Origin: Escherichia coli
Lineage (GTDB): Bacteria; Pseudomonadota; Gammaproteobacteria; Enterobacterales; Enterobacteriaceae
Direction: 5' to 3' (one strand)
DNA: 64,000 nucleotides
Assembly: GCF_013315695.1 (NCBI RefSeq)
Contig: NZ_CP054353.1
Positions 62,868-64,000 of the stretch are shown piece by piece. Made by a program: the position numbers and the translations under genes. Within the stretch, counting starts at the first letter, position 1. The number at the start of each line of letters is the position of its first letter. The notes under the pieces were generated by a model. That model saw only the letters and a list, made by a program, of their open reading frames with translations, ran no database searches and was not told the origin of the DNA.

Positions 62868-63344
62868 TCACACCGAACGCGATTCAGGAGGAACTGTTTG
62901 GTAAATAGCACCACCGGATCTTGGGGGCGCTGTGATTATTACAGTATTGCTATCACCGTCATTTTTGAATGTCACTTTACCAGTAGCATCAACGCCTACC
63001 CAGGAGGCCGAGCTTGAAAACGAATAATCAGCCGCCGTTTTTCCTGGTGCAAAGTTGTCATTATTCAACTGATAATACGCCCCGGTAAATCCCTGCGAAG
63101 GGAATGAAGCTGTCGGTAGGTTTGCACTATTCACTGACACTGTACCCGTCATTGGTCTGGTTTCCGCGCTAATGAATTCTATCGTGGTACTCAGACCCGC
63201 CTGATGAACACCATTCAATACGGGGATCAGCGTTGCGATACCCTCTCCGCCTCCTGTAACAGTAGCTTTGTAATCACCGTTGATATTTTGACTGTAATCA
63301 ATTGCGCTAATTTTCATATAGGGCACGTTTGTACCTGATTGCAC
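62868..63344 (-). other. in-frame 158-codon ORF immediately downstream of the yeeJ stop, adhesin-like composition (possible severed yeeJ C-terminus)
   Basis: Same reading frame as yeeJ, separated only by TAA and four codons; GTG start. Confidence 0.35.
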
Positions 63345-63359
63345 AAATTCTATCCCTTA

Positions 63360-64000
63360 AGAAACTTTGATCGGATTGCCTGATATATCGTGCAGAACAA
63401 GATGTAGCTCAGCACTATCGGTAAAGTCCCCTTTCAGTGATGACTGGTTGTTCTTAAGGATGGACTGCGAGGCGTCTGCTGGGCCTGCCACTAGCGATAT
63501 ATCTACTGTTTGCATTCCACCTGCGCTTGTGACTGTGCTTACAGTGACGCTCCCCGTTATCGCTCCTTTCACGCTTGTTGTCGCGATTCCGTTTTGATCG
63601 GTCACCGCTGTTAATGACGTTAATGTGGTGGAGCCGCTTTTTAAGGCGAAGTACACAGTGAGACCTTCGATCAGGTTACCACAGCCATCCTCAACCGTTG
63701 CCTTTAAGGTACTTAAATCACTGTTGGTGGCGGTGATAGTCGACGGATCAGCGATAAAGCTAGCAACATGTGCGGTGCTTGGGTTGCCAGTAACCTTCAC
63801 GGTTGTCTGTGTCTGTATTGTGACGCCGTTATGGAACGATGCAGTCACCGTATATGTACCGACTTTATTGCTGGTCAGAACGACTGGAGCCTGACCTGAA
63901 GAGTTGGTTCTCACTTTTCCGCCACTTAACGTCGCACCTTCTAGCGTTACGCTAAAGTTGATGACCTGACCCTCCACTGGAGTGCCATTTGCAGAGGTTA
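63360..64000 (-). CDS. yeeJ: inverse-autotransporter adhesin YeeJ, C-terminal Big-domain region (gene continues beyond window)
   Basis: Ser/Thr/Gly/Val-rich bacterial Ig-like repeats (..TVKVTGNPSTAHVASF.., ..VTVSTVTSAGG..); ends at TAA 63357..63359. Confidence 0.75.

Follow-up and report, generated by a model that had tools for sequence, protein, structure and literature searches.

At the edge of a 64,000-nt stretch of the Escherichia coli contig NZ_CP054353.1 (assembly GCF_013315695.1; hereafter the window), the reading frame of yeeJ, an adhesin gene with bacterial immunoglobulin (Ig)-like repeats, is interrupted by a TAA codon and resumes four codons later as an open reading frame (ORF) of 158 codons. 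Is this ORF the severed end of an adhesin, or does the TAA mark a natural gene boundary, followed by a gene expressed on its own? The first-pass annotation of the window had put forward both explanations. We report here that the TAA is a GAA-to-TAA nonsense mutation and that yeeJ continues in the downstream ORF. The locus as a whole is almost certainly a decayed copy of yeeJ linked to the fixed yersiniabactin high-pathogenicity island (HPI) at asnT and killed by deletions, in which the TAA is a later lesion of one sub-lineage and the ORF a leftover stretch of the old frame.

The TAA Codon Replaces a Glutamate Codon in the Middle of a Domain

The coordinates first given for the interrupted frame are correct. 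On the minus strand, the yeeJ frame ends at TAA 63359..63357 after the residues ...HDISGNPIKVS; GGG ATA GAA TTT follow, and from GTG 63344..63342 the same frame runs to TGA 62870..62868, through the peptide quoted in the first-pass annotation, KVTFKNDGDSNTVIITAPP. The upstream limit needs amendment: position 63977 is no more than the window's first GTG, and the frame is in fact open to the window edge at 64000, with the gene extending past it. In random sequence, the chance of 158 stop-free codons is about (61/64)^158 = 5e-4 (an arithmetic estimate). Here the run is open because of homology. Window positions 64000..62911 aligned with yeeJ of E. coli K-12 at 91.4% identity over 1090 nt without a frameshift (blastn and global alignment), the sole indel being one in-frame indel of 3 nt, and the suspected resemblance of the ORF to adhesin beta-sandwich domains was borne out by Pfam matches to Invasin_D4 and Invasin_D3 (Table 1).

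In this alignment the TAA stands opposite the GAA codon for Glu2097 of K-12 YeeJ, from which it differs by a single G to T change at 63359. An ATG to ATA change two codons downstream of the stop (63353..63351) is linked to it. When YeeJ orthologues were aligned across the site, as had been proposed, they read through it: GAA is present in all four intact or near-intact alleles (K-12, NRZ101721, ET450, which encodes 2668 aa, and O157:H7 Rafaela_II) and in 6 of 11 sampled remnants of the gene (MS20649, ZJ3920, EC1, 20Ec-P-124, TUM17668, and bovine strain 20.1). A TAA shared by every orthologue, with a downstream ORF unlike any YeeJ C terminus, is thus not what is found.

The position of the stop within the protein agrees. 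When it was replaced by E in the translation, Invasin_D3 (PF09134) matched residues 175–276 and profile positions 1–96 of 98, with the stop at residue 214; the ORF by itself covers just profile positions 55–96, followed by the Invasin_D4 domain. The TAA therefore bisects a beta-sandwich domain and is not a natural gene boundary.

The Surrounding Gene Lacks Both Ends of YeeJ

The last 20 kb of the window are 100% identical to E. coli MSB1_4I (NZ_LR898874.1). Over the final 1.4 kb, DA33135 is likewise 100% identical, and 1614 complete genomes match at 99% or better. In window-identical genomes, the Prokaryotic Genome Annotation Pipeline (PGAP) labels the locus a pseudogene ([quoted passage not shown]). 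It is flanked on one side by fyuA, the yersiniabactin receptor gene at the right end of the HPI, and on the other by a convergent glycosyltransferase family 9 gene, shiA, and amn; for all eight remnants with enough flanking sequence, fyuA is the immediate upstream neighbor. At this place in the chromosome, with asnT/HPI on one side and the glycosyltransferase gene with shiA on the other, K-12 MG1655 carries an intact 7077-bp yeeJ for a 2358-aa inverse autotransporter, or type Ve adhesin (PMC5595812). The two loci share these neighbors (the glycosyltransferase gene, shiA, and amn), the order Big_1, Invasin_D3, Invasin_D4, and 81.9% protein identity over 667 aa (tblastn, MSB1_4I).

In contrast to K-12 YeeJ, most of the remnant's gene is gone. 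A tblastn search with K-12 YeeJ against MSB1_4I and DA33135 recovered three pieces only, residues 93–203, 1434–1480 (in another frame), and 1583–2248. Gone are the signal peptide region, the greater part of the beta-barrel translocator (predicted at residues 119–460; PMC5595812), and about 1400 codons of repeats; the sequence upstream contains a frameshift and two large internal deletions. Of the N terminus of a functional adhesin (signal peptide, LysM, complete barrel), MSB1_4I retains only YeeJ residues 93–203, and the frame through the Ig-like repeats is broken by the upstream frameshift and deletions as well as by the TAA. Since the signal peptide region and most of the translocator are missing, the downstream product could not be exported as an adhesin even without the TAA.

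The 5′ fragment of the same dead yeeJ, which lies upstream of 64000 and in which only YeeJ residues 93–203 are recognizable, is annotated as if it were an ordinary protein, a 250-aa "inverse autotransporter beta domain-containing protein" (WP_000039788.1; locus L003, 10440..11189).

The 3′ end has been lost too. By multiple alignment, the deletion there is 431 bp long when K-12 is the reference and 443 bp long against ET450. The C-type lectin domain and the native stop codon were lost in it, as were the terminator hairpin and some 110 bp of intergenic DNA. In K-12 YeeJ, where the final 103 residues are reported to form a C-type lectin domain (Martinez-Gil et al., 2017, PMC5595812), Pfam places Intimin_C at residues ~2265–2339; a Pfam search of the window translation gave no match to this lectin-like tip. 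We had at first considered the junction to be a 453-bp K-12 segment exchanged for 19 bp of "filler." Alignment with ET450 showed the filler to be mostly homologous coding sequence of the ET450 class, and the junction is therefore narrower, at about 62888–62897.

The proposal of a nonsense-truncated adhesin with an untranslated C-terminal domain thus holds in part: the nonsense mutation is real, and the ORF continues yeeJ. The gene, however, was probably dead beforehand, and the ORF is not the C-terminal domain. Its codons correspond one-to-one with YeeJ residues ~2102–2250, that is, with the second half of Invasin_D3 and an Invasin_D4 domain, and its final ~9 codons together with the TGA come from a stretch that is intergenic in intact strains.

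The Deletions Are More Widespread than the TAA

To place the two kinds of lesion in the population, k-mers were counted in 5426 complete E. coli genomes. A 75-mer spanning the 3′ deletion junction was found in 2065 of them, and the exact 61-mer centered on the TAA in 1133 (median, one match per genome). In the eight rows sampled for the exact TAA 61-mer, the annotation is in each case "Ig-like domain-containing protein," as for the remnant, and never yeeJ. A sequencing or assembly error at the TAA would be conceivable, as repetitive adhesin genes are easily misassembled, a problem noted for upaH (PMC5595812). It is nevertheless extremely improbable, given that the same 61-mer recurs in 1133 independently assembled genomes and that the site is unique and non-repetitive.

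We compared 11 junction-bearing remnants, including that of MSB1_4I, which is identical to the window here. DA33135, MSB1_4I, and UM146 have the TAA and no other lesion in the 1.1 kb. The sequence type (ST) 131 strain 18044 has the TAA and, in addition, a stop at window-equivalent position 63566; bovine strain 20.1 has the 63566 stop with GAA at 63359. In MS20649, 20Ec-P-124, and TUM17668, which also have GAA, a 1-nt deletion at window-equivalent position 63020 frameshifts the ORF. Finally, ZJ3920 and EC1 have GAA and no other lesion, and their frame continues to the same TGA. The lesions at 63359, 63566, and 63020 are thus distributed differently among the remnants, and none occurs in the intact alleles, the pattern of a decaying pseudogene. 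For sites 63566 and 63359, all four combinations exist (window, G and T; ST131 18044, T and T; bovine 20.1, T and G; ZJ3920, G and G), an indication of recombination or recurrent mutation among the remnants.

Since ZJ3920 and EC1 carry the deletions without the stop, the deletions are more widespread and probably older. The reverse order, in which the TAA was the primary inactivation of a functional adhesin and the deletions came afterward, has some precedent beyond the TAA being a genuine nonsense mutation. Premature stops caused by single-nucleotide polymorphisms are seen in the otherwise intact yeeJ of W284 and NRZ101721, and a premature stop has been reported in the otherwise full-length yeeJ of the ST410 B5 clone (PMC10786849). 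We consider this order very unlikely here: the junction is present in 2065 genomes versus 1133 for the TAA 61-mer, none of the sampled TAA rows is annotated as yeeJ, and remnants with the ancestral GAA (ZJ3920, EC1, MS20649, 20Ec-P-124, TUM17668, and 20.1) have identical deletions and the same HPI context.

This distribution matches what is known of the island. Nearly all HPI-positive strains from ECOR, the reference collection for E. coli, share one deletion at the fyuA border that reaches the adjacent backbone, described as "a distinct mutation pattern" (Schubert et al., 2009, PMC2606025), and this deletion spreads by recombination with large flanking fragments (PMC2606025). The remnant shows no difference of substance from that pattern. 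Every sampled carrier has fyuA directly upstream, and the remnant is common to human extraintestinal pathogenic E. coli (ExPEC), bovine, and porcine strains, as expected of spread with HPI flanks; the TAA marks a subset of at least 1133 of the 2065 remnant genomes. In an earlier study, yeeJ was intact in ~40% of genomes but in only one B2 strain; CFT073 counted as yeeJ-negative, and truncated yeeJ was associated with the asnT/HPI hotspot (Martinez-Gil et al., 2017, PMC5595812).

The Downstream ORF Does Not Behave as a Gene

That the TAA is a natural gene end, and the ORF a separate gene expressed from GTG 63344, is in our view highly improbable, less likely even than a primary role of the TAA. 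In its favor, the ORF is long and intact in the window's lineage, and gene callers have deposited its exact 158-aa sequence as "hypothetical protein c2440 [E. coli CFT073]" and as "invasin" in at least 1000 contigs. The sole expression signal, a weak one, is an AGGG that can be read directly from the sequence 9 nt 5′ of GTG 63344; an identical motif lies within intact K-12 yeeJ. Against it, intact alleles carry GAA and read through, the ORF would start at position 55 of a 98-position Ig profile with neither signal peptide nor translocator, and in three of the sampled remnants it is frameshifted by the 1-nt deletion at 63020. A promoter and terminator scan of 62500..64000 returned 3 promoter-like sites against 2.7 expected from shuffled sequence, none of them 5′ of GTG 63344, and PGAP calls the locus a pseudogene. 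Of the two explanations originally offered, a natural stop followed by a separately expressed gene is hence the one that we discard.

The in-frame continuation is also all that speaks for programmed read-through, or recoding, of the stop to yield a longer product. The chance of this appears negligible, smaller than that of an assembly error: the ancestral codon is the sense codon GAA, the upstream frame is itself frameshifted and lacks a translocator, and an Rfam scan of 62400..64000 (E ≤ 1) detected no structured element. The sole Rfam match, to an archaeal snoRNA family, scored 15 bits versus a gathering score of 38 and was rejected as chance.

With no signal peptide, a mid-domain start, and no translocator for export, the ORF is most likely functionless. 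A role could be imagined nonetheless: re-initiation at GTG 63344 might supply a cytoplasmic 158-aa Ig-domain fragment that matters in HPI-carrying ExPEC, or the remnant might stabilize or insulate a fixed right border of the HPI. We regard either as exceedingly doubtful.

Another yeeJ allele shows the same kind of split-gene artifact. W284 has a K-12-type full-length yeeJ (locus 1448..9430) in which an independent stop precedes the site of the window's TAA by about 100 nt, and PGAP lists the piece downstream of it as a protein in its own right, a 260-aa "intimin C-type lectin domain-containing protein" (WP_000397530.1). This protein starts at an ATG whose counterpart in the window is ATA (63353..63351).

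The Remnant Derives from a Mosaic Allele

The closest intact relative of the Invasin_D4 region of the ORF is not K-12 yeeJ but the long allele of ET450, annotated as a 2668-aa "Ig-like domain-containing protein" (WP_061357675.1). Over window positions 63998..63199, compared as four sub-segments, identity is 91–97% to K-12 and 68–89% to ET450. The relation is reversed farther downstream, with 85% to K-12 versus 96% to ET450 over 63198..63049, and 74% versus 94% over 63048..62897. Unlike the remnant, the ET450 allele is intact, and it still has a lectin domain, albeit a divergent one. Taken together, the mosaic remnant and this divergent lectin suggest that alternative "tip" cassettes, consisting of the D4 and lectin domains, may circulate among yeeJ alleles.

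A Proposed Order of Events

We propose the following history. The ancestral allele would have been a mosaic that resembled K-12 upstream of about 63200 and ET450 downstream of it. It would have lost its 5′ end with most of the beta-barrel, about 1400 codons of Ig repeats, and the lectin domain with the stop codon and terminator. These deletions, linked to the HPI border, presumably came first, and the remnant then would have spread along with the HPI flanks. Later, the G to T change at Glu2097 (GAA to TAA), in the middle of Invasin_D3, probably arose in a sub-lineage that includes the window, CFT073-type strains, UM146, and ST131 strains. The 158-codon ORF would be the still-undamaged rest of the old frame, running into former intergenic DNA as far as the first chance TGA, and the remnant is probably neither expressed nor functional.

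Several points limit this account. The upstream lesions sit outside the window, and their presence is deduced from genomes that are identical to it across the 20 kb tested. The order of events is drawn from k-mer counts and a sample of 11 remnants rather than from a full phylogeny, and the evident recombination among remnants could blur it. Low-level translation of the ORF may occur, given the AGGG before GTG 63344. Comparison of the window with two other remnants gave 16 nonsynonymous and 5 synonymous changes, an omega of ~1 (versus 0.24–0.30 in the comparison with K-12) that rests on just 21 substitutions, although its direction is the one that a neutral remnant predicts.

The case is an ordinary and already known one, flagged as a pseudogene by PGAP and outlined in the HPI and YeeJ literature, and as a textbook decaying pseudogene it carries little biological weight. 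Its value lies in annotation: c2440, or "invasin," should be counted neither as a gene nor as a sign that a YeeJ adhesin is present. Recombination of the HPI flank could also be followed with three cheap lineage markers: the TAA, the stop at 63566, and the 1-nt deletion at 63020.

Features of the Locus and Its Neighborhood

Table 1. Features of the yeeJ remnant, in window coordinates
Feature	Position	Strand	Remarks
3′ part of yeeJ pseudogene remnant	62871..64000	-	K-12 YeeJ residues ~1884–2250 plus short foreign tail; runs past window edge
Big_1 (bacterial Ig-like group 1) repeat, upstream of the stop	63492..63761	-	Pfam PF02369, E = 1.4e-29
Invasin_D3-type Ig-like domain, split by the TAA	63171..63476	-	Pfam PF09134
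Secondary nonsense codon TAA	63357..63359	-	GAA (Glu2097) in K-12 YeeJ; G to T at 63359
158-codon ORF, GTG to TGA	62868..63344	-	YeeJ residues ~2102–2250 plus ~9 codons of former intergenic sequence
Invasin_D4-type domain, last surviving	62919..63140	-	Pfam PF21764, E = 6.5e-07, profile positions 3–77 of 88
3′ deletion junction	62888..62897	-	Multiple alignment with K-12, NRZ101721, ET450, and O157; breakpoint ambiguous by a few bases

Two ORFs lie antisense to the remnant, at 63367..63597 (+; 76 aa) and 63625..63894 (+; 89 aa), and are probably mechanical by-products. The convergent glycosyltransferase family 9 gene, at the position of yeeL (61688..62740, +), is intact in the window and encodes 350 aa; elsewhere it is a pseudogene with an internal stop (K-12), frameshifted (UM146, ET450), or interrupted by IS1 (DA33135, NRZ101721). 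According to the annotation of the identical MSB1_4I sequence, positions ~44022..47674 hold a CP4-44-like island remnant with genes for an IS3 transposase, an antirestriction protein, yeeS, yeeT, a YeeU-family antitoxin, cbtA, and yeeW; the flanking genes of this remnant are truncated.
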